Shown here: in pieces, positions 46,699 through 63,691 of the stretch | How the letters are laid out: the number at the start of each line of letters is the position of its first letter | How positions within the stretch are numbered: position 1 is the first letter of the stretch | Source: Phycisphaerales bacterium | GTDB taxonomy: Bacteria; Planctomycetota; Phycisphaerae; Phycisphaerales; UBA1924 | DNA: 64,000 nucleotides | NCBI GenBank assembly: GCA_036823255.1 | Contig: DAISGC010000001.1 | Span: forward strand, 18,836 to 82,835 | Direction of reading: 5' to 3' | Notes under the pieces: model-generated | What the model saw: only the letters and a program-made list of their open reading frames with translations | Database searches by the model: none | Told to the model about the DNA's origin: nothing | Position numbers and translations under genes: made by a program

Positions 46699-46917
46699 CC
46701 AGGCACGGCGTCGGGCTGCGGATCGCTGCCTTCCGCGTCCGGATCCGGATGCTGGCTGGGTGGTCCGAGTATTCGAGCGGCACGTGACGGCTGTGCAGGA
46801 TGTGTGGGAAGCGCAGAACGGTTGGGGGGGTGGTGGCGGGGGCGGCAAGCGTCGTGGTGATGGGCCCGTGTGCGATGGGCGATATGGCGTGGGATGGTCT
46901 CCAGGCCACCAGACGCC

Positions 46918-47760
46918 ATGGTCACACGTGCGACAAACCTCTGGAAACGTGCAGGGATCGCCGCGGTCGGCGTGATCGCGGCGGCTGCATATGCGCCGCG
47001 GGCCGAGGGCGTGGTGGTGACGGGCCTGTCGCCGATGGCGCGGCCTGCGGATGGGTGGGTGGGGAGCTGGAACGGGTCCTCGTGCGTGGCGGTGGGGCGG
47101 TACTGGTTTGTCACGGCTAAGCACGTGGGTGGGAGCGTGGGGCAGAATGTGACGATGCGCGGGGTCGAGTATCGGAGCGTGGAGGTCCGGCCACACCCGA
47201 TGTATGACGTGCAGCTCATCCGCGTTGCGGAGGAGGTGCCTGGGTATCACAAGCTGGCGATGAACGTCGGGGTTGGGGATCCCGTGGTGATCGGTGGGCA
47301 CGGGGTGACGGGTGCGGCCGCTCTTCCGTCATACGCCGGCTATGACTGGAACGGTCCGCGGCAGGAGGCGTGGGGCGCGAACGTGATCGAGGGAGATGGA
47401 AACCTGCTGGCGATCCGCTTCGACGCGCCGGTGTCATCGAGCGCGGTGCCGAGCGAGGCGATCTTCGCGGTGAACGACTCGGGGGGCGGGCTGTTCACAT
47501 TCGGTGCCGACGGGTCGCTGGAGCTGGCGGGGATCGCGGTGAGCGTGACGAACTTCGGGGCCTCGCCGTGGAGCACGACGGGGTTTGCGCTGAACATCGA
47601 CATGTACCGGTTGTGGATGCAGCCGATCGTGGATCCGACGGCGCCGATCAGTTCGGGCACGGGCGCGCCGCGGGCGATGATGGGCGTGCCGGGGCTGCCG
47701 GGGTGGGCCGGGGGCATGATCGTGTGCTGTGTGCTGGCGGGTCTGCGGCGTCGGCGATGA
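46918..47760 (+). CDS. Trypsin-like (S1) serine protease with PEP-CTERM-like C-terminal tail
   Basis: The signal peptide is MVTRATNLWKRAGIAAVGVIAAAAYAPRAEG. The catalytic triad context is FVTAKHVGG (His), YDVQLIRV (Asp) and VNDSGGGLF (Ser). The C-terminus is VPGLPGWAGGMIVCCVLAGLRRRR*. Alternative starts are the GTG at 46870 and the ATG at 46894. Confidence 0.7.
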   Translation: MVTRATNLWKRAGIAAVGVIAAAAYAPRAEGVVVTGLSPMARPADGWVGSWNGSSCVAVGRYWFVTAKHVGGSVGQNVTMRGVEYRSVEVRPHPMYDVQLIRVAEEVPGYHKLAMNVGVGDPVVIGGHGVTGAAALPSYAGYDWNGPRQEAWGANVIEGDGNLLAIRFDAPVSSSAVPSEAIFAVNDSGGGLFTFGADGSLELAGIAVSVTNFGASPWSTTGFALNIDMYRLWMQPIVDPTAPISSGTGAPRAMMGVPGLPGWAGGMIVCCVLAGLRRRR

Positions 47761-47766
47761 GCCGAG

Positions 47767-49770
47767 CTACTGCCCGGGCAGGTGCTTGTCGATCCAGTCA
47801 TCCTGACGGAGGACTTCGGCGCGGCTGACGCGGGCGCGGTGCTCGGCGCGGCGCTGGGCGTAGGTGAACAGGGCGAGGGCCGTCGCTCTGGAGGAGCCGG
47901 CGAGCTCGCCGGAGGCAAAGCCGGGTGTGGAGCGGAACGCGACGCCCAGAGAGCGTGCGTAGAGGCGGATGAGCTCGTCCTCGAGCGAGATGAAGGTCTG
48001 GGACGAGCCGGGATCGCCTTGGCGGCCGGCGCGACCGATGAACTGGCGATCGATGCGACGCGCGCTGTGCATCTCCGAAAGGATGACGTGAAGCCCTCCG
48101 GCTGCGCGGGCGTCTGGATCGAGCTTGATGTCGGTCCCGCGGCCGGCCATGTTGGTGGCGACCGTGATGGCGGAGGCGCGGCCGGCGTCGGAGACGAGGT
48201 CGGCCTCGTCCTTGTCGAAGTTCGCGTTGAGGACGCGATGGGGGAGATTCCTGGCGGCGAGCTTCTGGCTGAGCAGCTCGCTGGCCTCGATGGACCTGGT
48301 GCCGACGAGGATCGGGCGCTTCAGAGCGTGGATCTGGCGGATGCTCTCGACGATGGCGGACCACTTGGCGTCGAGATTGGCGAAGACCCGCGGGGCCCAC
48401 TTCTCACGGATGACGGGGCGATTGGTGGGGATGACGGAGATGGGCCGCTGATAGACGCGGGACATCTCGCCGGCGGCGTCGGCGGCGGTGCCGGTCATTC
48501 CGCCAAGGTGGGGATACGAGCGGAAGAAACGCTGGAAGCTCATCCGGGCGAGGGTCTCGCGGTCGGCGGTGACCTCGAGCCCTTCCTTTGCTTCGACGGC
48601 CTGGTGCAGGCCGTGCTCCCAGGAGCGATCGGGAAGGAAGCGGCCGGTGTACTCGTCGACGATGACGATGCGTCCGTCGACGATCTGGTACTGGTGCCCG
48701 TGGAGATAACAGTGGCGAGCGACCAGCGCCTGGCGGACGAGTTCTTCCGCGCGGCGCGTGGCCCGCCAGATCGGCTGCTCGAGCCCGGAAGAGAGCTCGG
48801 CGATGCGGTGGCGGCCGCGGCGGGTGAGCTCGGCCTTGCGGCGCATGTGATCCATGACGTAGTCGGCGCGCTCGTCGAGTTTCTGCGCGAGCCAGCAGGC
48901 GTCCTTGTAGACCAGCGCCATGTCGTCCTCGCGACGGGAGCGAGCGATGATGAGCGGAACGACGCCCTCGTCGATGAGCACGGCGTCGGCCTCGTCGACC
49001 AGGGCGGCGTGCAGGCCGGGGATCATGGGACCAGAGCCCATGCCGGCGGCGGGGCCGAGGGATCCGCCAAGCAGCCGTCGACCTGCCCAGGGGGTGTTGA
49101 GCTGGCCCAGGCGGATCTGATCGCGGAGCCAGTCGGCGGTGATCTGCTTGGGCGTGCCGTAGACGATCGGACGGGCGTAGACCTCGAAGCGGGCGGGCTC
49201 TTCAAGAGATTGCACGATCGCGCCGACATCGCACCCGCAGCGGCGGTAGATGCACGCTCGGCTGTCGGCGTCGCGCTGCGCGAGATAGTCGTTGACCGTG
49301 AGGATGTGCAGGTAGCGATGTCGCCAGGCCAGCAGGGGCGCGGCGAGGGAACCGGTGAGGGTCTTTCCCTCGCCGGTGACCATCTGGACGATGCGCCCGT
49401 GATACAACGCCAGTGCGCCCATGAGCTGTACGGGATAGGCCTCCTCGCCGGTCTCTCGGCGGGCGACCTCGCGGATGGCGGCAAGTGCGCGCTGGATCGT
49501 TGACTCATCCTCGCGACCGCGCATGAAGAGCTCTCGCAACTCGCGGACGTGTTCGTTGAGGGCGGCGTCTGAGTGGGTGCGCAGATCCTTGGCGTGGGTG
49601 GTGACGATCTGGGCCTGGGAGCGAAGCCAGGAGAGCGTGTGCCGCGCGTGCTTGAGCTTGGTGCGCGCCATGCTCGCCACGATGTCCAGTCCGCGCGGAT
49701 TCTCCGGCTTGCGTCGGCGGGCCCGCAAGGACTCGAAGAGGGCGTGGTATCGGGTGACCGTGGAGGACAT
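47767..49770 (-). CDS. SecA-like ATPase, C-terminally truncated (about 667 aa; motor domains plus short PPXD, no HWD/C-terminal regions)
   Basis: SecA motifs appear in order: MVTGEGKTL (Walker A), ILTVNDYLAQRDA, ALVDEADAVLIDEGVVPLII (DEAD), IVDEYTGRFLPDRSWEHGLHQAVEAKEG, QRFFRSYPHLGGMTGTA, VATNMAGRGTDIKL and IGRAGRQGDPGSSQTFISLEDELI. The protein ends about 60 aa later. I trimmed to the ATG at 49770, 17 nt after the upstream gene's stop. Confidence 0.8.
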   Translation of the reverse strand: MSSTVTRYHALFESLRARRRKPENPRGLDIVASMARTKLKHARHTLSWLRSQAQIVTTHAKDLRTHSDAALNEHVRELRELFMRGREDESTIQRALAAIREVARRETGEEAYPVQLMGALALYHGRIVQMVTGEGKTLTGSLAAPLLAWRHRYLHILTVNDYLAQRDADSRACIYRRCGCDVGAIVQSLEEPARFEVYARPIVYGTPKQITADWLRDQIRLGQLNTPWAGRRLLGGSLGPAAGMGSGPMIPGLHAALVDEADAVLIDEGVVPLIIARSRREDDMALVYKDACWLAQKLDERADYVMDHMRRKAELTRRGRHRIAELSSGLEQPIWRATRRAEELVRQALVARHCYLHGHQYQIVDGRIVIVDEYTGRFLPDRSWEHGLHQAVEAKEGLEVTADRETLARMSFQRFFRSYPHLGGMTGTAADAAGEMSRVYQRPISVIPTNRPVIREKWAPRVFANLDAKWSAIVESIRQIHALKRPILVGTRSIEASELLSQKLAARNLPHRVLNANFDKDEADLVSDAGRASAITVATNMAGRGTDIKLDPDARAAGGLHVILSEMHSARRIDRQFIGRAGRQGDPGSSQTFISLEDELIRLYARSLGVAFRSTPGFASGELAGSSRATALALFTYAQRRAEHRARVSRAEVLRQDDWIDKHLPGQ

Positions 49771-49787
49771 GTGTGGCGGGGGCCGGG

Positions 49788-51986
49788 CTAGATGTTCACC
49801 CGGCCCTGGATCTCCTTTCGGAGGCGATCGATCCACTGAGACAGCAGGGGGCGAGTGGGAAGCTTGAACCGGACGAGGACGCGCTCGCCGGGAAGAACGC
49901 TCGTCGCGAGCGCGCTGGAGGCATCGGGGTAGATGTACACGTTGAACTGCGGACGTTTGGCGACGCGTCCGGACTGGTCCTGTGGGTCGATCTCGAATCG
50001 CCCGCCGCCGCCGAAGCCCAGCGCGGCGCTTGGGAGGAGGCGTTGTCCGGCGAGCACGGGCTCGAAGCGTTCGGCGTTGACGATGGTGCTGACGTTGGAG
50101 AGCAGGCGGATCTGGCAGGCCGGGGGTTCGCCGCGCTGGTCGGCGCGGGTGAGGATCCACTCGGCCTGTTGCTGGTCGAAGGTGGCGGCGATGCGGATGG
50201 AGTCGGGATCGACGACGGTGCAGACGGGATCGCCGCGCTTGACGAAGCCGCCGAGTTTCTGGGCCGGGTCATCGCCGGCGACCACGCCGTCATGAGGGGC
50301 GAGGATGACGAGATCGGCGATTCGGCGTTCGATCTCCGCGAGGTTGTCGAGTCCGACACGGAGGCGTTCGCTTGCCAGCGCGGTGACGGCGGGATCGCCC
50401 TTGGCGACGCCGTCGCGGACCATGACGCGAATCTCATCGACCTGCGCGAGGAGCCCGGCCCGCTGTTCCACCAGGTCGCGATTCTCGACGGTGACGATGG
50501 GCTCGCCCTTGAGGACGCGCTCGCCCGGGCGCTTGTGGACCTGGGCGACGAACCCCTCGGTGCCGAAGTAGATGTTCGTCTTGGCGAGACTGTCGACGAC
50601 TCCGGAACCGTGCCGACGATCGGGCATGGGGATGAATCCCACGACGCCCAGCAGAAGGACGACCATGGCGATGGTGATGGCGACGGTGCGTGCCCTGTGC
50701 TCGCTGAGCATGGGGCTGGAGGCGAGCCAGTGCACGAGCTTGCCCAGGGGCATCAGGAACCACGCCGCGGCGGTCCAGACGGCGAGGACGAGCCCGATGG
50801 CGAAGAACTGTCCGAGGACAAAGAGCGTGATGGTGATGAACAGGAAGATGCGGTAGGCGAACGCGAGGATGCCGTAGACGATGAGAATCGTGCGCTCGTC
50901 GGCCTGGGTGGTGGGGGCCGTCAGGTTCTTCAGCCGGTAGATGAACCGCTGAATGAGATGCAGGAGCATCTTGTTGGAGCGGTTGGCGAGATTGGGGACT
51001 TCAAGAAGGTCGGCGAGCATGTAGTAGCCGTCGAACCGCATGAGCGGGTTGGCGTTGAACAGGATGGTGGAGATGCCGCTGGTGACCATGATGTTGAAGC
51101 AGAACCGCGCCAGAACGCTTCCGCCCTGCCCGGATTCCTGCTGGGCGATCCAGACGAACGCCGCGCTCGCGGCGACGACGCGCTCGAACATCATGCCGGC
51201 GGCGCCGACGGCGACGCGTCGCCACTTGCTCGTGAACGCCCACGCGCTTGAGGCGTCGACATATGGCGATGGGAAGAGGACCAGGAGCATCACCCCGAAC
51301 TCGGGCACCTGCCCGCCGAAACGCTTGCAGACCACGCCGTGCCCGAACTCGTGGATGGCCTTGGTGACAACGAAGGCCAGGGGGATGAGCCAGAGGAACT
51401 GGGGGTCGAAGATGTGCTGCTGGTTGAAGTCGCTGGCGAGCTTGCCCCAATGGGGGATGATGCTGATAAGCGCCCAGAGGATCAGCGCGCACCAGGCGAG
51501 GAAGCCCCAGCGGTTGAGGATGGGTCGAAGGATGGGCTCGGCGGCGGTGAGGAAGCGATCCGGATTCAGCAAGCGGATCTTCAGGTACATGATGCCGATC
51601 GCCTGCGCGATGGCCTTCTTCTTCACGCGTTCGCGGCCTCGGCGGAGGAGTTGCTCGGTCTCCGGCGAGGCGTCGCAGGAGAGCAGATTGGACTGATAGA
51701 GCTGGCTGATGAGCTGGATGATCTCGTTCTGCGTGGGGGCCAGGTCGCCGAACTTCTCGAGCGAGGCGTGCCAGGCGGCCTCGATCTCGCGCTGGCCGTC
51801 GAGCATCCCGACAAAGTCGTACGCGACGGGGTTGAGCCGGAAGAACTGGTTGCTGGTGGGATCATGCACGACGTGCCAGCGTCGCCCGCGGTAGTGCTGG
51901 CGGGTGATCTGCACGTGCGGGCGGAGCTTCGGGCGCATGGTCCGCACGCGGTGCCAGAAGGGGCTGAATGTGGGGCGTTCGTTCAT
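49788..51986 (-). CDS. M50 (site-2 protease) family membrane metalloprotease fused to a C-terminal HlyD-type membrane-fusion domain
   Basis: The HExxH motif is in a TM helix (FVVTKAIHEFGHGVVCKRFG). The second S2P motif is FNANPLMRFDGYYMLADLL. It has multiple TM helices, followed by lipoyl-like, coiled-coil and beta-barrel MFP segments (...RPGERVLKGEPIVTVEN...ILAPHDGVVAG...VKRGDPVCTVV). I trimmed to the ATG at 51986 (MNERPTFSPFWHRV), because the longer track ORF overlaps the upstream gene. Confidence 0.75.
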   Translation of the reverse strand: MNERPTFSPFWHRVRTMRPKLRPHVQITRQHYRGRRWHVVHDPTSNQFFRLNPVAYDFVGMLDGQREIEAAWHASLEKFGDLAPTQNEIIQLISQLYQSNLLSCDASPETEQLLRRGRERVKKKAIAQAIGIMYLKIRLLNPDRFLTAAEPILRPILNRWGFLAWCALILWALISIIPHWGKLASDFNQQHIFDPQFLWLIPLAFVVTKAIHEFGHGVVCKRFGGQVPEFGVMLLVLFPSPYVDASSAWAFTSKWRRVAVGAAGMMFERVVAASAAFVWIAQQESGQGGSVLARFCFNIMVTSGISTILFNANPLMRFDGYYMLADLLEVPNLANRSNKMLLHLIQRFIYRLKNLTAPTTQADERTILIVYGILAFAYRIFLFITITLFVLGQFFAIGLVLAVWTAAAWFLMPLGKLVHWLASSPMLSEHRARTVAITIAMVVLLLGVVGFIPMPDRRHGSGVVDSLAKTNIYFGTEGFVAQVHKRPGERVLKGEPIVTVENRDLVEQRAGLLAQVDEIRVMVRDGVAKGDPAVTALASERLRVGLDNLAEIERRIADLVILAPHDGVVAGDDPAQKLGGFVKRGDPVCTVVDPDSIRIAATFDQQQAEWILTRADQRGEPPACQIRLLSNVSTIVNAERFEPVLAGQRLLPSAALGFGGGGRFEIDPQDQSGRVAKRPQFNVYIYPDASSALATSVLPGERVLVRFKLPTRPLLSQWIDRLRKEIQGRVNI

Positions 51987-52083
51987 GGGGGAAGGCGCCG
52001 TGCGCTTGAAACTGGGCACTGCAAAGAGACAGGAGAACTGGTTCTCACGAGTGCCCAACGCCTCGTGCCCAGCGCCCGGGCGC

Positions 52084-54084
52084 TCACCACCACAGCCACA
52101 ACCTTGCCTGGTCGATGATCCGACGCGAGCCGATCCACAGCAGGCTGCGCTCCACCGTGTCGAACTTGGCGATGCCCTCGACGCCCGGGCTGAACCAATC
52201 GGGTCGGCCCTTGAGCGAAGCCCGGACTTCGAACACGTTCTTTCCCTCGGCCGCCGACGCCAGGGGCACGATCCGCTCGATGGTGACGGGCTGCGGCTCA
52301 TCGGGCTTGGCCTTGCTTGCGACCATGCCTTGCCCCTTGCCGCTGTCGAACGCCTGCTTGATGAGTCCGATGTCGCGCTCGTCGACCTGGGCGACGACGA
52401 TGATGTCATCCAGCGGCGCAACCTGCATCAGCAGATCCCCGGTCTTGACGGTCGAGCCGATGCGATCCTTCACATCCCCGGAGATGATCGTGCCGCCGAT
52501 CGGGGCGAGAATCCGAGACTTGTCGATGCGGAATCGATAGCGCTCGGCTTCGGTGGCGGCCCTGACCTCCTGCTGCTCGGCCTGGGCGACCTTGGACTGG
52601 TCCTTGGCCTTGCGTGCGGCGGCGGCCTGGGTGCGGGCCTGTTCGATGCGTCCCTGGGCATCCTTGAGCGCCAGCTCCAGCTCGCTGGTGTCCAGCTCAA
52701 CCAGCAGATCGCCCTCCTTGACGACGCAGCCGGGAGCGATGCACGGGCCGACGGCGCTCACCACGCCCTCGAACGGGGCGGAGACAAAGCGCCGGACGCG
52801 CGGCTCCAGCGTCGCCTCCGCAGACGGGCGGTACGTGGTCGTGTAGAACGTGACAAAGAGCATCAACGCCAGGGCCGCGATCCCGACGACCTTCCAGACG
52901 GTGTGCTTGGTCCCCACGAACCATGCGGCGGCGTTTCTCGTCGAATCCCAGGCGCGGAGCGGGAGCATGCGGTCGTCGGACCGCCTGATCTTGAGCACCG
53001 GGGCGATCAGGTCCATCGCAGCCTGGATGAGCTCGATGGTCGAGAGGTCGACCGAGCCGTCGGCGGACGTCTCGAACGTGAGCACCCCGATCACGTCGTC
53101 GCCGTCGCGCAGCGGAAGGGAGCAGACCTTGAGCTTGGCGTTGCCCGCGGCGAGCTCGCGATGGGCGTGGACGATCGCCTGGCTGAGCAGCATGTCCGAC
53201 CCTTCGCCGCTGGAGGGCGGCTGGGGAAAGAGCACGGGCTGCTCCTGGTCCAGGCACTCGTCCATGGCGGTGGCGAGCTTCTGCACCATGTTCGTGCGAT
53301 GGTCGAAGTGCTCGATGTCGCTGATGGCGCGGACCTTGACAACGTCGCTCTGCACCCAGCCAAGCGCGACCCGGTCCAGGGCGAACTGCTTGGCCAGGTC
53401 GTTGCAGAGCTGCAGGCACGCGCCCTTGAAGTTCGGCGCGGTGTTCACGCTGGCGATCAGCCGCGTGGCCAGATCAAAGGAGAAGCTCGCCGCCTGGGTC
53501 TTGCGGAGCGCCACGCGCGCGTGGTGCCCGCCGACATATCCGGCGAGCACCTCGGCCATGGCCAGCGTTGATCGGATCGCGTCCTTGGCTCGCGGCTCGA
53601 TGAGCAGGGTGATGGCGGCAAAGGGCACCTCTCGCGTCGGCGAGCCCGACGAGTGCGGCACGGCCTGAGCCCGCTGCCCGAGTGGGATCGCCAGAATGAA
53701 CCCGCTCTGCGACCCCTCGCCGTAATAGAGCTCTTCCTTGTCAAGCCCGAAGGCCCGGGCCTGCCCGGTGGCAAACGCTCCGCGTGCCGCCGTGCGAGAC
53801 TCGTTCCCGAACAGCACCTGTGAGGCCTGCGGCGCAACGGCCCTGGCGGCTTGCTCGGCGTCCTTGTCGAGTTCCGGCGGGGGCCAGATCAGGTCGATGC
53901 GCGGGTCGACGTCCTCGCCGTCGGTCCGGTCCGGAAGGTACAGCACCGCCTGTCTCGCGGCGCTGACCTGGGCCATGACTCGGAGCAGCCGCTCAAAGTA
54001 CACGCGGTCGTCTGGAGCGGAGGCGTTGAGCTCCGCGACGACGCGCTGCCAGCCGGAGGCCTTGAGCTGCGACAGGTCGATCAC
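52084..54084 (-). CDS. Tandem GAF-like domains + TM + HlyD-type membrane-fusion protein
   Basis: The GTG start at 54084 overlaps the upstream stop (GTGA), with a GGAGGA 7 nt upstream. Two GAF-like segments are present (...AARQAVLYLPD...FILAIPLG... and LCNDLAKQFALDRVALGWV...DVIGVLTFET...). The TM helix is VWKVVGIAALALMLFVTFY. MFP motifs are APFEGVVSAV...VKEGDLLVELD, a coiled coil, and ILAPIGGTIISGDV...GDLLMQV. Confidence 0.7.
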   Translation of the reverse strand: MIDLSQLKASGWQRVVAELNASAPDDRVYFERLLRVMAQVSAARQAVLYLPDRTDGEDVDPRIDLIWPPPELDKDAEQAARAVAPQASQVLFGNESRTAARGAFATGQARAFGLDKEELYYGEGSQSGFILAIPLGQRAQAVPHSSGSPTREVPFAAITLLIEPRAKDAIRSTLAMAEVLAGYVGGHHARVALRKTQAASFSFDLATRLIASVNTAPNFKGACLQLCNDLAKQFALDRVALGWVQSDVVKVRAISDIEHFDHRTNMVQKLATAMDECLDQEQPVLFPQPPSSGEGSDMLLSQAIVHAHRELAAGNAKLKVCSLPLRDGDDVIGVLTFETSADGSVDLSTIELIQAAMDLIAPVLKIRRSDDRMLPLRAWDSTRNAAAWFVGTKHTVWKVVGIAALALMLFVTFYTTTYRPSAEATLEPRVRRFVSAPFEGVVSAVGPCIAPGCVVKEGDLLVELDTSELELALKDAQGRIEQARTQAAAARKAKDQSKVAQAEQQEVRAATEAERYRFRIDKSRILAPIGGTIISGDVKDRIGSTVKTGDLLMQVAPLDDIIVVAQVDERDIGLIKQAFDSGKGQGMVASKAKPDEPQPVTIERIVPLASAAEGKNVFEVRASLKGRPDWFSPGVEGIAKFDTVERSLLWIGSRRIIDQARLWLWW

Positions 54085-55118
54085 GGGCTGGTCCTCCCCG
54101 CACCGGAGGCGGTCTTGAACGTCGGGGCGGGCTCGGTGAAACGCACACGGGCCTGCGTGCCCGCCGGCCAGTTCTGGACGTTGGCGATCTCGACGCGGAC
54201 GCGGCGGGTCTGGCTCACGCTGTCTGCGACCGGCGAGACGTACAGCACCGTGCCGCGGACGACCTTGGCCTCCCCGGGAAGGTCCAAGAGCACCCACGCC
54301 GGGCTGCCCTCGCGGAGATTGAGCGTGAGCGTCTCATGGGTGTCGGCGTAGGGGTCGAGCCACAGCTTCTCGGTGTTCACAAGCCGGAGGACGTCCTCCT
54401 GCTCGGTGACGCCCTTGCCGACTTCGACGAGCACTTCTTCGATGACCCCGTCGAATGGGGCCTCCAAGTAGTACCTCTCGTACTGCCCTTCAAGCTGCTT
54501 GAGCCGAAAGCCCTGCTGTTCCAGGTTCTTCTTGGCCTGGTCGCGCTGCACCCGTGCGGTCTCGGCCTCGATCCGGAGCTGCTCGAACTCCGTTGGCGAG
54601 AAGACCTTGCCGCTCTTGAGCTGATTGAACTTGAACTCGGCGAGCTCCAGGGCCTTCTCCGAACCCTGAACCTCGAGGGTGTTCTCCGCAAGGGCGCGCT
54701 GCTGGTCCACAGCGGCCTTGATCTCGGCGTCCCGGGCACGCACGAGCACGTCCCCGCGCTTGACACGCTGTCCGCCGACCACGTTGATCTCGCGCACCTC
54801 CGTGGAGAACGAGAACTTCATGGTGACGTCGTTGCGCGGCTTGGTGTCGGCCTTGTACCCCCCGAACTCGCTGGCGATGGCCTCCCACGCCGAGAACCCG
54901 GCCAGAGGCGTCGAAGACGCCGCGTTCGCCGAGGGCTCGGCCGGAGCCGATCGGTTCGCCGGGGCCGACTGACCCGCGGCGATCGCCACGCCGATGGTCG
55001 ACTGAGCGATCAGGAACAGGATCGCCGGGGTTCGGCCAAACGCCGGGCGGAACAGGAAGGGCCGGTCGGCATCGGCCGTCCCGATCAGAGCGAGAGCGCG
55101 ACTCGTCATATTCACCAT
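54081..55118 (-). CDS. HlyD/efflux-adaptor family membrane-fusion protein (periplasmic adaptor)
   Basis: The N-terminal TM helix is AILFLIAQSTIGVAIAAG. The lipoyl-like motif is VREINVVGGQRVKRGDVLVRARD. It has a coiled-coil hairpin, then LEAPFDGVIEEVLVEVGKGV and a C-terminal beta-barrel. I chose the ATG at 55118; an alternative ATG lies at 55109, and the track ORF starts at 55166. Confidence 0.7.
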   Translation of the reverse strand: MVNMTSRALALIGTADADRPFLFRPAFGRTPAILFLIAQSTIGVAIAAGQSAPANRSAPAEPSANAASSTPLAGFSAWEAIASEFGGYKADTKPRNDVTMKFSFSTEVREINVVGGQRVKRGDVLVRARDAEIKAAVDQQRALAENTLEVQGSEKALELAEFKFNQLKSGKVFSPTEFEQLRIEAETARVQRDQAKKNLEQQGFRLKQLEGQYERYYLEAPFDGVIEEVLVEVGKGVTEQEDVLRLVNTEKLWLDPYADTHETLTLNLREGSPAWVLLDLPGEAKVVRGTVLYVSPVADSVSQTRRVRVEIANVQNWPAGTQARVRFTEPAPTFKTASGAGRTSP

Positions 55119-55515
55119 CGTAGATGCGTTTCCGTCAGCGGTTCCGGCATGTGCACATGCGGTCATGGTGTGATCGGCGTTTGGTCGGTGTGGGGTTGGG
55201 GCGTTTCGGTCGTCGGGCAGTCCGAAGGGTGCTGGGCGTCGAGCGCAGAAGTTGCGTGCACGCCGCCCTGAGATGTACGAAGTGCGCCGGCCGGCGATGC
55301 GCCAATCGGAGATTGTGGGTTTGACCCGTCACAAGCCGAAAAACGCATGTCCGACGGTCCGCCCGGATCGGTCGACCAAGCGGGCGGAGTCCCGCCAAGA
55401 CGTCTGTACGCCAAAAGCGATGCGGCGGTTGAGGTATCCGTGTTCGGCGTGGAGCGGCCGACGGACGTGCAATCGGGCCGTCGCGGGCCCGGATCAAGCC
55501 CAGCGAGTCGCCACC

Positions 55516-57003
55516 ATGACCACACGCTCTCCGCTGACGTTTCAGCCCGTCGATCCGCCCGTGGCCACCAGGCCGTCCTCCGGGGCGCGTCGGGCGCCCC
55601 GGGCGCTGAAGATCGATCTGACCCCGCCGCACGCGGGTGATCCGCTGGCGCCGATCGCGCCCTGGGGTGTGCAGCCGACCTGGCCGAACCCGGATCCGGC
55701 AGCGTCGCAGGGCGGGTCTCCGACGCTGAGCGAGATGGTGGACCGGGCCTCGGCCCAGTTGGTGATCCTGCGCAAGGCCGTCGAGGAAGCGGGGGTCGCC
55801 GACCGTTCCGTGCGTCAGCACGCGCTCGAGCTGGCGCAGCGCGTTCAGCAGGGGCAGCGCTTTGCGCAGGAGTTGGACCAGCGGCTGTCGGCGGCCGGGC
55901 GTGCGGCGGGCATGCTGGAGAAGGCCACCGGCGCGCTCACGGCACTGGAGAAGGTGCTGGAGCAGATGCGCTCGGCTCAGGCCGCGGTGAGCCGCGGAAT
56001 CGAGCAGCGCCTGGAAAAGCAGCAGCAGGAGTTCGATCGACTGCTGCGCGAGCAGCAGGCCCGATTCCAGAGACGATTGTCGGAGATCGAGTCGGCGAGC
56101 GAGCAGGCCGTTCGCGCGTCGCACGAGCGGGCCGAGCGGACCATCGCCGAGGCCGAGCGTCGAGGGGAGGACATCGCTCGGAAGCTGGACGAGCTGTCCC
56201 GGGACGCCGAGGCGGTGATCGAGGAGCGGCGTCGGGCGATCCAACAGCAGGTTGACCAGGCCGTCGCCGCGGCCGATCGACAGGCGGCCCAGGTGCAGGC
56301 CCGAGTCTCGCTCGTGCTGGATGGAGCGTCCGAGCGGCTGGATCTGCTGGAACAGCAGGGCAAACGTCTCGGCGTGGACGCGCAGGAGGCCATCGACGCG
56401 CTCTGCGAACGCGCGGCGCTGGTGCTCGGCCATGATCCGCGATCGAGTTTCTCGACTCCGCCAAGGCCCGGATCGCTCGCCGATGCCGTCAGCAAGGGCG
56501 AGAGCGTGGTCCGCGAGGTCGACGACGCGGGCCTTCGCATCGCGGCCTGCCGGGGTGAGGCGATGAGCGTGATGGATCGCCTTCTGGACGCGGTGCAGCA
56601 GGGTCGTCAGGTTGTCGAACTGGGCGAGCCCGCGCTCGCCGAGCTGCGTGCCAGCATGGAACGGGCGATGATCGAGGGCCAGCGGGCGTGCGACGCTCTG
56701 GGCGAATCCACCCGGGCTCAGCGGCACGCCGCGGAACAGGCCGACCGGGCGAGCGAACTGCTCTCACGCCAGCGCGACGATCTGTCGGCCGTTGCCGAGG
56801 CGAGCCGCTACCACGTTGAGCAGTGCCGGGCGGCGGAAGTCACGCTGCGCGCGACCCTCGCCGACGCCGAGGCCCGGGGCCCGGACCTTGAGCGGTCGGC
56901 CCGCGAGGTGCGCCGCGAGGCGGAGCGGCTGGTGCAACTGGCGCGGGAGGCGGCGGAGATCGCCCGCCGGGCGTCGGCGGAACTCGGCGACGACGCGCAG
57001 TGA
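55516..57003 (+). CDS. Hypothetical coiled-coil protein (Ala/Glu/Arg/Gln-rich)
   Basis: I trimmed to the ATG at 55516 (MTTRSPLTFQPVD...). It has long heptad-like stretches (LEKQQQEFDRLLREQQARFQRRLSEIESASEQAV...). The antisense 530-aa ORF is a Leu/Arg-rich shadow. It is divergent from the MFP operon. Confidence 0.6.
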   Translation: MTTRSPLTFQPVDPPVATRPSSGARRAPRALKIDLTPPHAGDPLAPIAPWGVQPTWPNPDPAASQGGSPTLSEMVDRASAQLVILRKAVEEAGVADRSVRQHALELAQRVQQGQRFAQELDQRLSAAGRAAGMLEKATGALTALEKVLEQMRSAQAAVSRGIEQRLEKQQQEFDRLLREQQARFQRRLSEIESASEQAVRASHERAERTIAEAERRGEDIARKLDELSRDAEAVIEERRRAIQQQVDQAVAAADRQAAQVQARVSLVLDGASERLDLLEQQGKRLGVDAQEAIDALCERAALVLGHDPRSSFSTPPRPGSLADAVSKGESVVREVDDAGLRIAACRGEAMSVMDRLLDAVQQGRQVVELGEPALAELRASMERAMIEGQRACDALGESTRAQRHAAEQADRASELLSRQRDDLSAVAEASRYHVEQCRAAEVTLRATLADAEARGPDLERSAREVRREAERLVQLAREAAEIARRASAELGDDAQ

Positions 57004-57123: not shown

Positions 57124-58323
57124 ATGACCACCGCTGCCGTGTCTCCGTCTGCGTCGATGTCTGGTCGGACAAGTCACCTCGCCATCAACGGCGGCACGCC
57201 GGTCAGCCCGACGCCGATCCCGTTCATGCACACGGCCCTGGCGCAAGCGGACATCGATGCCGCCACGGCGGTGCTCAAGAGCGGGATGCTCCGGGCCGCG
57301 ACTCGGTGCGAAGAGCTCGAGAAGCGGTTTGCGGCGATGACGGGCGCCCGGCACATGATGACCTGCGCCAACGGGACGTGCGCCCTGCAACTGGCCTATG
57401 AGCCACTGTTCAAGGCCGGCGACGACGTGCTCGTCCCGGCGTGGAGCTACATCGCCACCGTGAGCATGGTCGTCGCCCGCGGGGCCAATCCGATCTTTGT
57501 CGACGCGCTCCCGGACACCATGCAGATCGACATGGCCGACGCGGCCCGCAAGGTCACGCCCAGGACCACCGCCATCGCCGCGACGCACCTGTATGGATGC
57601 CCGGTGGACATCGACGCGGTGCAGGCCCTGGCGGCTCAGAAGGGCCTGAAGGTGATCTATGACTGCGCCCAGGCCCACCTGAGCACGTACAAGGGCAAGG
57701 GCGTCGGCGCCTTCGGCGACGCCGTGACGTACTCGTTCTACGCCACCAAGAACCTTGGCACCGGCGAGGGCGGGGCCATCAGTTGCAACGACGACGCCCT
57801 GGCCCGACAGATCAAGCTCCTGCGATCGCACGGCGAGACGGACAAGTACCTGCACGAGCAGGTCGGGTACAACTACCGGATGAATGACATCACGGGGGCC
57901 ATCGGGCTGAGCAAGCTCGATCGTCTTCCGGCCGAGACAAGCAGCCGCAGAGAGATCGCCAGGAAGTTCGACGCGGCGATCGCGAAGATCCCGGGGCTGA
58001 CGGCGCCCGCGACCACTCCGGGCGCCGAGGCGGTCTATCACCTGTATGTGGTGCAGCTTGATCCATCCCGGTTCTCGTGCACGCGGGATGTGTTCTGCGA
58101 GGCGCTCAAGGCCGAGGGCGTGCCGACGGCCATCCACTATCCGCGTTCGCTCACCCGCCAGCCGGCGTTCGCGGCCCAGGCGGCCAAGCAGGGGCATCCG
58201 CCGGTTGCCGATGGGCTGAGCAAGCGTGTGTTCGCGTTGCCGATGCACCACATGCTGTCGCCTGAGCAGGTTTCCAGGATCGCCGAGGCCCTGGACAAGG
58301 TCGCTCGCGCGTTCCGCGTGTGA
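57124..58323 (+). CDS. DegT/DnrJ/EryC1/StrS family PLP-dependent aminotransferase (second copy)
   Basis: Motifs present: TCANGTCALQLAYEPLFKAGDDVLVPAWSYIATVS, IYDCAQAH, SFYATKNLGTGEGG (PLP lysine), GYNYRMNDITGAIG. Confidence 0.85.
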   Translation: MTTAAVSPSASMSGRTSHLAINGGTPVSPTPIPFMHTALAQADIDAATAVLKSGMLRAATRCEELEKRFAAMTGARHMMTCANGTCALQLAYEPLFKAGDDVLVPAWSYIATVSMVVARGANPIFVDALPDTMQIDMADAARKVTPRTTAIAATHLYGCPVDIDAVQALAAQKGLKVIYDCAQAHLSTYKGKGVGAFGDAVTYSFYATKNLGTGEGGAISCNDDALARQIKLLRSHGETDKYLHEQVGYNYRMNDITGAIGLSKLDRLPAETSSRREIARKFDAAIAKIPGLTAPATTPGAEAVYHLYVVQLDPSRFSCTRDVFCEALKAEGVPTAIHYPRSLTRQPAFAAQAAKQGHPPVADGLSKRVFALPMHHMLSPEQVSRIAEALDKVARAFRV

Positions 58324-60390: not shown

Positions 60391-60622
60391 ACCACAAGCG
60401 TATCGGACCTGACTCCAGCCGAGCGCGACACCACCGATCCAGGTGGGGGCGCGTCACGACTTGCCCATCTCTCCGCATGGTCGGTTCATTCGGACGTGGC
60501 CGGCGTTCCGGCCCGGCGGGATCGCCGCGGGCGATGAAGACCCGGCGCGGGGGGGCCGATGGAGCGATATCCGCGCTTCGGCGCGGCGAGTCGTGAGTTT
60601 CCAGCCCGTCCGCGGAGCCGAC

Positions 60623-63600
60623 ATGTCGCAAGAACCGAACTCCACTCCCGCCGCTCAGCCCCACACGCCCGCGCCCGCGGGCTCGGACGGCTTCCTGGCC
60701 TCGCTCTCGGATCTGGAGTCGCGGATCAACGCGCTCAAGGCGTTGCACGAGGAAGCCGCCAGCCGCGACGCGGGACTCTCCACACGCGAGCAGCAGGTGG
60801 CGATGCGCGAGCAGCAGGCCGCGGCTCAGATCCAGCGGCTGGAGTCCCGGCAGAAGGAACTCGAGCAGCAGCGTGCCGAACTCGAACAGGCCAGACGCGA
60901 GCAGGATGAGGCGATGGCCAAGCTGCGCGCCCAGATCGAGGAGCGGCAGGCCGACTTGGCCAGAGAGGTGCAGCAGCTTCGGGATCAGGCCCGCCAGGAC
61001 GCCGAGCGCCGCACCGAGATCGAGTCGAGCGAGAAACGGCTGCAGGAGCTCTCTGCCCGTCTGGAACAGCAGAAAGCCGAGTCCGAGCGTCTTGCCCGCG
61101 AGCTTGCCGGCAAGACCACAGATGCGCAGCGGGAGCTTGAGAAGCGCGAGCGCGATCTGGTTCGACGCGAGGAGAGCGTCTCGGCGAAGCTCGCGAAGCT
61201 CGAGTCCGACCTCGACAGGCTGCAGCGCGACCGGACGGAGACCGAGTCGCTGCGCAAGAACCTGGGCGACCTGGAGCAGGTGGTTGCCGATCGCGAGAGG
61301 TCCCTCGCCGAGCGCGAGAAGCTCATCACCAGCGAACGCAAGCAGATGAACGACGATCGGCAGTCGCTGGAAGCCCTGCAGGAGGAGTCCAGGGCGGCGA
61401 TCGAGGCGCGGCAGCATGAGCTGGAGGAACGCGAGTTCGATCTCAAGCGGCAGGCCGAGGAGATCGCCCGCGAACGGGCCAGCGTGACCGAACACGCCCG
61501 TACGCTCGCCGAGCAGATGAAGTCCAACGACGCCGAGCACCAGGCGGCGATCTGGAACAACCGGCTTGAATCGCTCCAGCTCCAGCTCGGTGAGCAGAGC
61601 GCGGCCCGGGCACGGCTGGAGACCGAGCTGGCCCAGAGCAAGGACGACATCGAGTCGCTGACGCAGGAGCTCATCGAGGCCAACTCGGCCAAGGGCGTCC
61701 CTCAGGAGGAGATCGATCGCCGCGAGCGAACCATCGCCGAACTCACCGCCCAGGCCGAGGAAGCGCAGGCGACGATCCAGATGCTGCAGCAGCATCTGGA
61801 GGCCTCGATGCGAAGCACCCGGGCCGCGGAAGAGGCCCGCGCCAAGGAGCAGGGCGAGCGGGACGCGATCGCCAAGGCGGCGTCGGACAGCATGTCGGCC
61901 AAGCTCCGCGAACTCGAGGAGCAGGCGGCACTTCTGGCCGACCAGCGTCGCGAGCTGGAAGAGTCCAGGCGCGAGCAGCAGCGGATCAGCGCCGAGTGCG
62001 ACGAGATGCGTCGGGAGATGGGCGAGCTCGTCGTTCGAGCCCAGAGCGCCGAGCGCACGCTGGAGCGGATGGTGCCCAGGGAGCGGCTGCAGCAGGTCGA
62101 GAGCGAACTCGCCGCCGCACGCGAGCTCCTGGATCAGGCCGAGAATGCCGCCCGGGATCAGGTTCCGGCATCGCAGGTGCGCGAGTGCGAGGCGCTCATC
62201 GCGGGCATGCAGAAGGCCATGGATGAGGCCGACCGCAACGCCAGGGAGCTGCTGGACGAGCAGACGGCGTCGCGCGACCAGATGATCGCGACCCTCAAGG
62301 TGCAGCTCGAGGCCGCCGCCGCTCGAAGCGCAAGCACCCTCAGTGACGAGGTGCACCGGTGCGAGGCGACCATCGCCGAGCTCAAGCAGCGTTTGCACGA
62401 GGCCGAAGCCGGCGGTGCGGGAACCGGCGCGGCCGCCGCGGCTGCCCTGGCCCAGGTTGCGCAGCGCGACGAGGAGATCGCCGAGCTTCGCAGACAGATC
62501 GAACAGGCCGCGGCCGACGGGGCCGCCGACCAGCGAGCCGAGATCGAGCTGCGCGACGAGCGCATCGCGGCACTGGAAGCGCAGCTCGTCGAGCTCTCGG
62601 CCAAGGTCGAAGAGGCCCAGGGCGTGCCCCCTGAAGAGATCATGAAGCGCGACGAGGCCATCATGGTCCTGAAGGAACGGCTGGACCAGATGACGCTGGA
62701 GCGCGACGAACTGGTCCGCGCCGCCGACGATGCTCGCGCCGGCGCAAGCACGCCAGCGGAGCACGACGGCCGACCGACGGATCAGGATCTGCGGCGTCGC
62801 GATCGATTGCGAAGGTACAAGCACCTGCTGCAGGCCCAGGCACGCAAGATCGTGGCGGCCCAGAACGCGATCCAGAAGCGGCACGTGGAGTGCGAGATGG
62901 TGCTGCAGCAGCGGCACAAGCTCGCCCAGATGGCTCAGCAGCTTGCCAAGGTGGAGAAGCGCGTCGGCGGGGCCAAGGCCAGGACGGGAGCCGCGGCGGC
63001 GGTGCTGTACATGGCCGCCACGCTCGGAATCCTCGCGGTCATGAGCTGGCACATCTCCTCGAAGATCTGGCCCGGAACGTTCATCGCCAAGGCCGTCGTC
63101 GAGGCCGACAGCGGCCGCCGGACGCCGCCGCCCGATGACCTGGCTGCGTGGAAGAGCGACCACGAGCAGATGCTGAAGGACCCGCGATTCATGGAGTTTG
63201 CCGCCGAACGCATGTTCCGGCGCGGACTCACGCCCTCACCGGCGCCCGCGGAGCTCTCGTCCCGGCTGCAGACGGACTTGTATGTGCAGAGCACCAAGCC
63301 CGGAGCGATCACCGTCGAGCTTCGGGGCGAGGGCGCGGAGCGCACCGCATTGACCCTCGACACACTCATGACCGCGCTCAAGTCCTTCAGCGACACCGGA
63401 CGCGATCAGCGGGCCAACGACATCGGGCTCACCATCGCCCAGGCCGCCACCGCCGGCAGCGAGCCTCTGCTGGACAAGCGTCTGGAGAAGGCCGGTGGAG
63501 TCTTCGGCGGAGCCGCGCTCGCCGCGGGTCTGGCCGGACTCATCATCTGGAGCCGACTGGTGAGGGCCAAGCGGAAGTTCGACCAGGCCGCCGCGGTCGA

Positions 63601-63691
63601 CGCGGCCATGGCCGAGGTGGACTGGGGCACGCTCGAGGCCTCGATCAAGAAGAACCCGACGCGTCAGGGCAAGAGCGGCGGGCCGGAATGA
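60623..63691 (+). CDS. Giant coiled-coil protein (about 1020 aa) with C-terminal two-TM, Wzz/PCP-like module
   Basis: I trimmed to the ATG at 60623. About 780 aa form E/R/Q/A-rich coiled coil. These are followed by TM1 (AAAVLYMAATLGILAVMSWHI), a segment of about 140 aa (FIAKAVVEA...ITVELRGEGAERTALTLDTLMTAL...) and TM2 (GGAALAAGLAGLIIWSRLV). The antisense 940-aa ORF was rejected. Confidence 0.7.
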   Translation: MSQEPNSTPAAQPHTPAPAGSDGFLASLSDLESRINALKALHEEAASRDAGLSTREQQVAMREQQAAAQIQRLESRQKELEQQRAELEQARREQDEAMAKLRAQIEERQADLAREVQQLRDQARQDAERRTEIESSEKRLQELSARLEQQKAESERLARELAGKTTDAQRELEKRERDLVRREESVSAKLAKLESDLDRLQRDRTETESLRKNLGDLEQVVADRERSLAEREKLITSERKQMNDDRQSLEALQEESRAAIEARQHELEEREFDLKRQAEEIARERASVTEHARTLAEQMKSNDAEHQAAIWNNRLESLQLQLGEQSAARARLETELAQSKDDIESLTQELIEANSAKGVPQEEIDRRERTIAELTAQAEEAQATIQMLQQHLEASMRSTRAAEEARAKEQGERDAIAKAASDSMSAKLRELEEQAALLADQRRELEESRREQQRISAECDEMRREMGELVVRAQSAERTLERMVPRERLQQVESELAAARELLDQAENAARDQVPASQVRECEALIAGMQKAMDEADRNARELLDEQTASRDQMIATLKVQLEAAAARSASTLSDEVHRCEATIAELKQRLHEAEAGGAGTGAAAAAALAQVAQRDEEIAELRRQIEQAAADGAADQRAEIELRDERIAALEAQLVELSAKVEEAQGVPPEEIMKRDEAIMVLKERLDQMTLERDELVRAADDARAGASTPAEHDGRPTDQDLRRRDRLRRYKHLLQAQARKIVAAQNAIQKRHVECEMVLQQRHKLAQMAQQLAKVEKRVGGAKARTGAAAAVLYMAATLGILAVMSWHISSKIWPGTFIAKAVVEADSGRRTPPPDDLAAWKSDHEQMLKDPRFMEFAAERMFRRGLTPSPAPAELSSRLQTDLYVQSTKPGAITVELRGEGAERTALTLDTLMTALKSFSDTGRDQRANDIGLTIAQAATAGSEPLLDKRLEKAGGVFGGAALAAGLAGLIIWSRLVRAKRKFDQAAAVDAAMAEVDWGTLEASIKKNPTRQGKSGGPE

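Follow-up and report, generated by a model that had tools for sequence, protein, structure and literature searches.

A minus-strand operon of four genes lies within a 64,000-nucleotide stretch of a Phycisphaerales genome (GenBank assembly GCA_036823255.1, contig DAISGC010000001.1, positions 18,836 to 82,835; hereafter the window), and we consider it probable, with real room for doubt, that its products make up a type-I-like secretion apparatus that crosses the envelope and is powered by a shortened SecA motor in place of an ABC transporter. The genes specify, in order, a plain membrane-fusion protein (MFP1), a tandem-GAF protein joined through a transmembrane (TM) segment to a second membrane-fusion (MFP) module, an M50 site-2 protease fused to a third, and a SecA-like ATPase (Table 1). 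A first-pass annotation of this DNA had proposed a dedicated, envelope-spanning machine for protein processing and export; this stands as the best reading of the operon and agrees with the hypothesis of Kamneva, Poudel & Ward (2015, PLoS One; PMC4452313). The novelty that the same annotation attributed to the gene set did not survive, both the module and the functional idea having been published in that article. The cassette type has been known computationally since 2015 and the window operon is its Phycisphaerales version; the RiPP recognition element (RRE; RiPP, ribosomally synthesized and post-translationally modified peptide), the quantified linkage to TolC, the absence of a pump and the hypothesis of LEPR-XLL proteins as cargo are new here.

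The last gene had been described as encoding a truncated SecA-like ATPase, and the database comparisons bear this out. Pfam recognises SecA_DEAD (5.1e-79), SecA_PP_bind (2.7e-22) and P-loop_SecA (2.9e-54) in its product, with no match to SecA_SW; the protein aligns with residues 18-606 of the Bacillus subtilis SecA (841-844 aa; E 1e-116) and then stops, the alignment ending at about residues 606-613 of the latter, and it matches a SecA2 in the PDB at 2e-109. Its ATPase motifs, namely Walker A (GEGKT), the DEAD-type motif (VDEAD) and the arginine finger, are intact. As judged from the alignment, the protein comprises the first nucleotide-binding domain (NBD1), the preprotein clamp (PPXD), the second nucleotide-binding domain (NBD2) and the start of the scaffold helix, and it is devoid of a helical wing domain, a two-helix finger and a C-terminal tail; the domain map behind this assignment is reportedly that of Hunt et al. 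from 2002. The scores reach neither the canonical SecA equivalogs (TIGR00963, 508.8 against a cut-off of 800 bits; PRK12904, 521.4 against 814) nor those of SecA2 (TIGR03714, 422.5/930; TIGR04221, 398.8/725; TIGR04397, 452.4/1085; NF012136, 352/1100). The 120 closest homologues measure 653-703 aa, and nearly all full-length members among the best 150 representatives at 50% identity fall at about 590-720 aa; shortness is therefore typical of the family and does not result from an artefactual truncation. No second or canonical SecA is encoded in the window or in any locus retrieved. A 1,240-aa SecA-like relative that does match SecA_SW occurs in locus L086, directly after a gene for a 718-aa M50-MFP-like protein, and may represent an intermediate or re-fused form. 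Public annotation gives little hint of the family: PGAP names the Phycisphaerales members 'hypothetical protein' and the RefSeq entries for alphaproteobacterial plasmids read 'prepilin peptidase' or 'DEAD/DEAH box helicase'; such systematic misnaming conceals the system.

The architecture of the motor bears directly on a two-step alternative, in which an accessory SecA2-type motor would feed SecYEG, the M50 protease would clip the leader in the membrane and the adaptors would form with TolC a conduit exporting the protein from the periplasm. MacAB-type systems accept periplasmic substrates, and such a route would solve the problem of the missing inner-membrane channel. The protein is moreover a true SecA homologue with NBD1, PPXD and NBD2, as its similarity to B. 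subtilis SecA and to SecA2 attests, and its clade stands next to the actinobacterial SecA2 proteins in the tree of PMC4452313. It nonetheless stops at about B. subtilis residues 606-613 and gives no match to SecA_SW, and so lacks the two-helix finger and the helical wing domain; the N-termini of the LEPR-XLL proteins considered below as cargo are basic and without a classical hydrophobic signal core, and neither secY2 nor accessory sec genes recur in the cassette neighbourhoods. Canonical SecA and SecA2 both retain the finger and the wing domain for coupling to SecY. We regard the two-step route as improbable, a little more so than the peptide-export alternative discussed next.

Our analysis also uncovered, at the N-terminus of the third product, a domain that the first-pass annotation had overlooked and that changes the picture of substrate recognition. 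Residues 38-102 match Pfam PqqD (PF05402) at 2.8e-6 (28.0 bits; cut-off 23.4), the AlphaFold2 (AF2) model places strands at 26-32, 35-42 and 47-51 followed by helices at 53-60, 68-82 and 86-98, the domain is alignable across eight distant orthologues, and PGAP calls the orthologues 'PqqD family'. By modelled fold and PF05402 match the domain is a PqqD-type RRE, for which peptide binding is predicted. It precedes an M50 core that contains hydrophobic helices by both hydrophobicity and AF2 and that scores 1.4e-5 against Pfam Peptidase_M50 (25.0 bits, slightly under the cut-off of 27.2); PF02163 matches seven of the eight distant orthologues, with E values up to 0.01. The HExxH and NxxPxxxxDG motifs, already reported as intact, are indeed so: H212, E213, H216, N311, P314, D319 and G320 are invariant in 72 homologues, and in the eight distant orthologues the H, E, H, P and D are kept while N311 varies. 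The C-terminal MFP module (HlyD_3, 6.2e-10) carries a hairpin of two 26-27-residue helices (503-529 and 532-557 in the AF2 model). The model as a whole (predicted local distance difference test score, pLDDT, 83) runs from the RRE through a helical membrane core to a MexA/MacA-like adaptor. Its best Foldseek matches are the MexA, MacA, AcrA and EmrA adaptors at about E 1e-11, the adaptor module dominating the search with the full model; sequence and profile searches of the PDB likewise found adaptor proteins only (by profile MacA, EmrA and LipC) and no solved structure for the RRE-M50 part.

The same protein provides the best case for an alternative of another kind, namely that the operon matures and exports a small RiPP or bacteriocin-type peptide, with the RRE binding the leader, the M50 domain serving as leader peptidase and the adaptors expelling the product with an unlinked TolC. 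Residues 19-410 find their best NCBIfam match in the RRE + M50 family of daptide metalloproteases (daptide_HExxH, NF041824; 6.6e-52, with 362 of 379 model positions aligned) and their next best in the YydH/LiaK epipeptide protease (NF058609; 3e-10), the PqqD score lies over the Pfam cut-off, and JGI labels the orthologues 'putative peptide zinc metalloprotease'. The two NCBIfam scores are nevertheless far under the equivalog cut-offs (176.9 against 300 and 40.1 against 225 bits), no conserved small open reading frame (ORF) is found in or around the cassette at 81 loci, and genes for modifying enzymes such as radical SAM or YcaO proteins do not recur. The alternative leaves the SecA motor without a role; a polypeptide motor of this type and adjoining giant genes suit a protein cargo better, and peptide export appears to us unlikely, while being the least unlikely of the alternatives. 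Three clusters of ORFs of 25-120 aa, present in 43-48 loci, had been considered as small precursor peptides and were rejected as off-frame shadows of a neighbouring aminotransferase gene of the DegT type.

The remaining two products are adaptors, and the domain make-up proposed for the four proteins was confirmed by Pfam and NCBIfam, with Peptidase_M50 slightly under its threshold, a HlyD_3 or HlyD_D23 domain being present in all three adaptor proteins. MFP1 is a short, plain membrane-fusion (periplasmic adaptor) protein, with HlyD_D23 (1.5e-14), HlyD_3 (9.7e-14) and Biotin_lipoyl_2 domains, a single N-terminal hydrophobic anchor (residues 31-49) and a score above the NCBIfam RND_mfp cut-off (103.6 against 94.9 bits). 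In the second product (GAF 1.5e-8 at residues 225-361, HlyD_3 2.2e-14, HlyD_D23 1.4e-10) a cytoplasmic tandem GAF region (about residues 1-365) is followed by a long helix with a TM segment (395-413) and a periplasmic MFP module (about 420-666). The duplication of the GAF domain is upheld by the AF2 model of residues 1-392 (pLDDT 80.7), whose best PDB matches by Foldseek are the tandem GAF regions of PDE5A, CyaB2, PDE6 and PDE2A (top entries 3lfv, 1ykd and 8ulg; about 410-450 aligned columns).

The window has a G+C content of about 67%, at which long spurious ORFs are common. The four minus-strand genes were nevertheless found at the positions assigned to them, with a G+C content at third codon positions (GC3) of 0.81-0.86 in all four frames, the codon-position signature of real genes; the frames translate to coherent proteins, and an independent gene call in a public collection yields an identical 667-aa SecA-like product. 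Direct reading of the sequence also verified the fine structure reported for the junctions. The GTG start of gene 2 (54084-54082) overlaps the TGA stop of MFP1 (54083-54081) as GTGA, behind a GGAGGA of its own, an arrangement that indicates translational coupling; spacers of 97 and 17 nt precede the M50-MFP and SecA-like genes. No terminator-like site lies in the 97-nt spacer, and promoter and terminator scans of the region gave nothing beyond shuffle expectation (3 terminator-like sites found, 2.9 expected). Plus-strand genes bound the operon on both sides, and it therefore consists of exactly four genes.

Conservation of the neighbourhood supports the view that the four genes form a self-contained and strongly conserved functional unit. 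A profile scan for the M50-MFP protein over one genome per GTDB species returned 80 loci, 76 from Phycisphaerales/Planctomycetota and 4 from Verrucomicrobiota, and the order MFP1 > GAF-MFP > M50-MFP > SecA-like, in the same orientation, is complete in 61 of them, the other 19 being mostly interrupted by contig ends. MFP1 was missed by tblastn in L069, L081 and L082 and recovered by phmmer in L081; the upstream ORFs of L069 and L082 are not detectably MFP1, the gene for which may be located at another site in these two genomes. Among the four genes the SecA-like one is conserved best (46-74% identity), and more distant representatives, at 38-46% identity, were also looked up. Metagenome contigs scanned with a profile of the eight distant M50-MFP proteins contributed 80 further loci, and there the SecA-like gene comes after the M50 gene in 51 of the 51 with at least 1.5 kb of following sequence. 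A different arrangement was observed on a Thalassospira marina plasmid (L177; NZ_CP024200.1, 193606-212571), which reads LEPR-XLL giant > DUF3467 > GAF-MFP > M50-MFP > MFP1 > TolC; its motor may be encoded elsewhere, or the cluster may be a variant working without one.

The position of TolC separates Phycisphaerales from the other lineages. The statement that the operon comes without TolC holds for the window and for 77 Phycisphaerales loci, none of which has a pump or TolC gene in the operon or within 10 kb, but it fails elsewhere: a gene for a TolC-family outer-membrane efflux protein (OEP) belongs to the cluster in 28 of the 45 metagenome loci outside Phycisphaerales for which 3 kb or more of flank is available. 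In Limisphaera the OEP stop overlaps the MFP1 start, so that the two are translationally coupled; in L083, L085, L088 and L092 the OEP gene immediately follows or adjoins the cassette, and a TolC gene closes the Methylosinus and Thalassospira clusters. Clustering of flanking ORFs over about 170 related loci revealed no recurring ABC, RND or MFS gene, and the SecA-like protein is the sole ATPase of the unit; the absence of a canonical pump and the singling out of the SecA-type motor as the only energy-transducing component are both sustained. Beyond the core genes and the OEP, only DUF3467 and SapC recur among the flanking ORFs. DUF3467 proteins of about 95-106 aa are encoded inside the cassette in 12-14 loci, most often separating GAF-MFP from the giant gene or from MFP1, and a SapC-family gene is present in 7 loci; neither occurs in the window or in any Phycisphaerales locus.

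These distributions weigh against two further explanations. The adaptors could be ordinary efflux components that serve an unlinked ABC, RND or MFS pump for small molecules, the SecA-like gene being an unrelated passenger; MFP1 does exceed the RND_mfp cut-off, and PGAP uses the name 'efflux RND transporter periplasmic adaptor subunit'. We find this hard to credit at all, since the supposed passenger is the best-conserved gene and is present in all 51 informative loci, no pump gene recurs, and fusions to RRE-M50 and tandem GAF modules are foreign to efflux adaptors. Alternatively, the operon could be a signalling device in which GAF-controlled, M50-mediated intramembrane proteolysis of a membrane regulator is combined with adaptors acting as periplasmic scaffolds or sensors. 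M50 site-2 proteases are classically found in anti-sigma-factor cascades and GAF domains imply the sensing of a ligand; furthermore, the GAF gene is the only one expressed in the exponential phase of Methylobacterium extorquens (PMC4452313). Yet no sigma factor, anti-sigma factor or other regulator is conserved nearby, and a cascade of this kind has no use for three MexA/MacA-like adaptors, a frequently linked TolC and a translocation motor; we consider a signalling function very unlikely, if less so than efflux. Neither the signalling nor the efflux explanation accounts for the invariant SecA-like partner.

Giant genes found beside the cassette in other lineages, coding for 4,000-13,000 aa or more, point to a possible cargo. 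Those next to L083 (5,481 aa) and L088 (3,549 aa) match the LEPR-XLL model NF012209 with 21.3 and 24.0 bits (cut-off 17), the motif taking in the giants the form F-x-LE-x-LEPR-x-LLSAD. A strict scan for LE[PEDAQSTN]R.[LMV][LMF][SAFT], which had to lie no more than 120 residues from the beginning of an ORF and to be followed by a long reading frame, produced 13 N-terminal matches in the 80 metagenome loci (13 of 45 informative), and 5 ORFs, that is 4 distinct genes (L089 and L090 hold the same one), in the look-up loci; a reversed-motif control gave 0 matches. None of the 13 metagenome ORFs starts more than 2.8 kb from the edge of the cassette, although half of the flanking sequence available lies at a greater distance (P = 1.7e-4 against a uniform distribution), and 6 of them follow the SecA-like gene directly on the same strand, exceed 2,500 aa and run off the contig. 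On alphaproteobacterial plasmids, four of which bear a giant with the LEPR motif beside the cassette, the recurring order is giant gene > (DUF3467) > GAF-MFP > M50-MFP > SecA-like, with MFP1 and TolC varying in position. PGAP names the giants of Pseudosulfitobacter (12,918 aa) and Thalassospira (4,033 aa) 'LEPR-XLL domain-containing protein', and those of Mesorhizobium ciceri (10,518 aa) and Methylosinus (8,847 aa), otherwise named, bear the N-terminal LEPR motifs ...HFEALEPRLLLSADF... and ...IFDTLEPRVLLNADV..., respectively; the PGAP-annotated plasmids thus confirm independently the adjacency of LEPR giant and cassette. In a 2026 preprint on Chlorobium chlorochromatii, 24-aa LEPRxLL N-termini are reported on symbiosis proteins of 36,806 and 20,647 aa whose genes adjoin SapC and TolC and which, according to its authors, are devoid of known transport signals. 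The literature on LEPR-XLL is otherwise nearly empty, and the papers searched contained nothing linking it to the SecA-like/M50/GAF cassette. From gene neighbourhood we put forward the hypothesis that LEPR-XLL giants are the cargo of the cassette in these other lineages. Large neighbours at three further loci were set aside and do not count as support: the giant at L082 (2,106 aa) starts with a signal peptide of the classical type, the beta-helix and Big_5 proteins next to L092 have ordinary signal peptides, and the N-terminus of a 4,359-aa autotransporter with PATR repeats and an EprS-like C-terminal barrel lies off locus L087. The L087 cassette is preceded on the same strand by a 206-aa ORF, which follows the end of the autotransporter gene at a distance of 22 nt.

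Taken one step further, the cassette and TolC, often with DUF3467 or SapC, would constitute a distinct and unnamed secretion system for LEPR-XLL giants, in which the PqqD-type domain reads the leader, the M50 protease cuts it and a SecA without the SecY-binding parts threads the protein N-terminus first; we give this proposal an even chance. In the reading of the operon given at the outset, the three inner-membrane-anchored adaptors, in which MexA/MacA-like periplasmic modules are observed, would build a periplasmic conduit docking onto a TolC-family channel, the gene for which adjoins the cassette in most other lineages but would be unlinked in the window organism. The RRE would capture the N-terminal leader of the cargo and the M50 site remove it during or after translocation, a putative parallel to the C39 peptidase domain of peptidase-containing ABC exporters (PCAT). 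The SecA-like protein may dock on the cytoplasmic RRE and GAF domains and thread the unfolded polypeptide into the membrane assembly, export being possibly gated by binding of a small ligand to the tandem GAF region; DUF3467 and SapC could act as accessory or chaperone factors where present. It can be envisaged that the same LEPR-XLL class of cargo, encoded elsewhere, is served in the window genome. At the window itself, where outer-membrane partner and cargo are not linked to the operon, both are predictions only.

Several points weigh against this reading of the operon. The weakest step is the inner-membrane route, which is unexplained and without precedent; an M50 core is not known to act as a protein-conducting channel. 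The Peptidase_M50 score is below the Pfam gathering threshold and the daptide_HExxH score of 177 bits well short of 300. The strict LEPR expression was built from the first two matches, the later matches and the PGAP names being independent of it; about two thirds of the informative loci outside Phycisphaerales have no adjacent LEPR gene, and the Thalassospira cluster has no in-line SecA-like gene. The window and 77 Phycisphaerales loci (1.35 Mb) contain neither a LEPR-XLL ORF nor an OEP, DUF3467 or SapC gene, the motif scan giving 0 matches in the window and 76 of these loci. A relaxed expression gave 9 matches in Phycisphaerales loci, none of them in the context of the motif, and these were judged to be due to chance. 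Experimental follow-up of the module was not found in the literature, where no module protein has been characterised, and in the only expression data published, those of M. extorquens reanalysed in PMC4452313, the M50, SecA and HlyD genes are silent in exponential phase.

Table 1. Positions of the operon features and of other genes mentioned in the text; coordinates refer to the window unless a locus is named.
Feature	Position	Strand	Size or basis
MFP1 (gene 1)	54081-55118	-	345 aa
GAF-GAF-TM-MFP (gene 2)	52084-54084	-	666 aa
GGAGGA ribosome-binding site of gene 2	54092-54097	-	read from sequence
Intergenic spacer gene 2 / gene 3	51987-52083	-	97 nt
M50 protease-MFP (gene 3)	49788-51986	-	Pfam, NCBIfam, AF2
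PqqD-like RRE, cytoplasmic	51672-51932	-	about residues 19-105 of gene 3
M50 intramembrane metalloprotease core	50631-51521	-	about residues 156-452 of gene 3
HEFGH	51339-51353	-	gene 3 residues 212-216
NANPLMRFDG	51027-51056	-	N311-x2-P314-x4-D319-G320 of gene 3
C-terminal periplasmic MFP module of gene 3	49788-50630	-	about residues 453-732
SecA-like ATPase (gene 4)	47767-49770	-	667 aa
ORF convergent with gene 4	46870-47760	+	296 aa
ORF before the DegT gene	55252-57003		583 aa
DegT/DnrJ/EryC1 aminotransferase	57124-58323	+	
DegT/DnrJ/EryC1 aminotransferase, example in L008	L008 5514-6779	-	
Long ORF	60443-63691	+	1,082 aa
Misnamed SecA-like genes	L173 18059-20083; L174 17204-19120; L176 14177-16138		Pfam SecA_DEAD, SecA_PP_bind, P-loop_SecA
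SecA-like relative with SecA_SW	L086 3656-7378		1,240 aa
DUF3467 genes	L174 12726-13046; L176 8784-9089; L177 9681-9977; L087 12043-12327; 10 metagenome loci		
Autotransporter	L087 1-4335	+	4,359 aa

The genes flanking the operon are unrelated housekeeping or unknown genes and include ribBA, a phosphoglucomutase, a DegT-type aminotransferase, a SpoIID-domain protein and several ORFs without Pfam match. In about 48 of 81 Phycisphaerales loci the aminotransferase gene (DegT/DnrJ/EryC1) is found upstream of the cassette in divergent orientation, an adjacency that is probably lineage synteny, and it is the only gene besides those of the cassette that is linked in Phycisphaerales. A first clustering of the flanks had returned the four genes only and was partly misleading, the DegT gene being hidden in a merged cluster of minus-strand shadow ORFs. 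In the window and its closest relatives L003 and L004 a 583-aa ORF without Pfam match is inserted before the DegT gene. Convergent with the SecA-like gene, a 296-aa ORF with an N-terminal hydrophobic segment and no Pfam match ends in a C-terminus (…GGMIVCCVLAGLRRRR) that resembles a PEP-CTERM-like membrane-anchor or sorting tail; it adjoins the SecA-like gene only in the identical contigs L001 and L002. A further ORF of 1,082 aa has a GC3 of 0.86, no Pfam match and no LEPR motif.

The module is widespread, the short SecA-like protein being found here in Planctomycetota, Verrucomicrobiota and Alphaproteobacteria and in further phyla in PMC4452313, and genome pipelines mislabel its components as 'hypothetical protein', 'prepilin peptidase', 'DEAD/DEAH box helicase' or 'efflux adaptor'. 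For the window, our analysis supplies a corrected annotation and a prediction of the partners to seek elsewhere in the genome. If the link to the cargo is true, it would explain the export route of the giant LEPR-XLL surface proteins, a group to which some of the largest bacterial proteins on record belong (for example the symbiosis proteins of C. chlorochromatii, with 20,000-37,000 aa); SecA-type ATPases would then be a second class of motor in TolC-dependent one-step secretion, and a RiPP-style recognition domain would have been reused in protein sorting. Gene sets in which these ideas are testable occur in culturable Methylobacterium, Mesorhizobium, Thalassospira and Pseudosulfitobacter.

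The closest likeness is to the module of PMC4452313, with which the cassette shares all four protein types, the taxa and the proposed function and from which nothing sets it apart in kind. Its authors described 'secondary SecA_DEAD domain proteins' without wing/scaffold domain, encoded with three HlyD-domain proteins (one with peptidase_M50, one with GAF, one plain) in Planctomycetes, Verrucomicrobia, Proteobacteria, one Nitrospirae and one Chlorobi, and listed PSMK_16490 and PSMK_16500 of Phycisphaera mikurensis in their S2 table. They noted OEP genes sometimes nearby and a canonical SecA elsewhere in the genomes that bear the module, and proposed that SecA_DEAD is the ATPase of a T1SS (type I secretion system)-like system in which the M50 protein may form the membrane passage. 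PqqD is not mentioned in that article (0 occurrences), nor is a cargo or any association with LEPR-XLL, DUF3467 or SapC. An independent parallel in favour of our reading is a motor of similar make-up, SecA_DEAD with PPXD and without scaffold or wing, described by West-Roberts et al. (2023, bioRxiv; 10.1101/2023.11.21.568195) inside giant proteins of Omnitrophota and Actinobacteria, where it likewise coexists with canonical SecA and is proposed to export giants; there the motor is part of the giant protein, whereas here it is a free-standing protein of 667 aa in an adaptor/protease operon, and that work does not link LEPR-XLL to the SecA-like/M50/GAF cassette.

With the leader peptidases of RiPP pathways (daptide MpaP, NF041824; YydH/LiaK, NF058609) the third product shares an N-terminal PqqD-like domain followed by an HExxH protease, but it scores below their equivalog cut-offs and is fused to a periplasmic adaptor, and the cassette has no precursor or modification genes and a SecA-like motor, not an ABC exporter, as partner. 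The accessory SecA2 systems resemble it in devoting a second SecA paralogue to a subset of cargo that includes some very large serine-rich adhesins. SecA2, however, keeps the scaffold and two-helix finger and works with SecY or SecY2, whereas the SecA-like protein stops after NBD2 and some 60 residues and is linked to adaptors and TolC, not to SecY2/Asp. Type I secretion, as in PCAT or in LapA export by LapBCE with LapD/LapG, offers a functional parallel, with an inner-membrane energiser, a HlyD-type adaptor and TolC (linked to the cassette outside Phycisphaerales); very large repetitive surface proteins, an inner-membrane protease that cleaves the leader and cytoplasmic control of the second-messenger type are likewise features of PCAT and giant-adhesin systems. 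SapC, moreover, is an accessory that we take to be common to the cassette and the S-layer type I system of Campylobacter fetus. The cassette departs from these systems in having a SecA homologue as motor and no ABC transporter, an M50 in place of a C39 protease and three adaptors in place of one, and the putative signal of its cargo is N-terminal (LEPR-XLL), whereas that of type I substrates is C-terminal.

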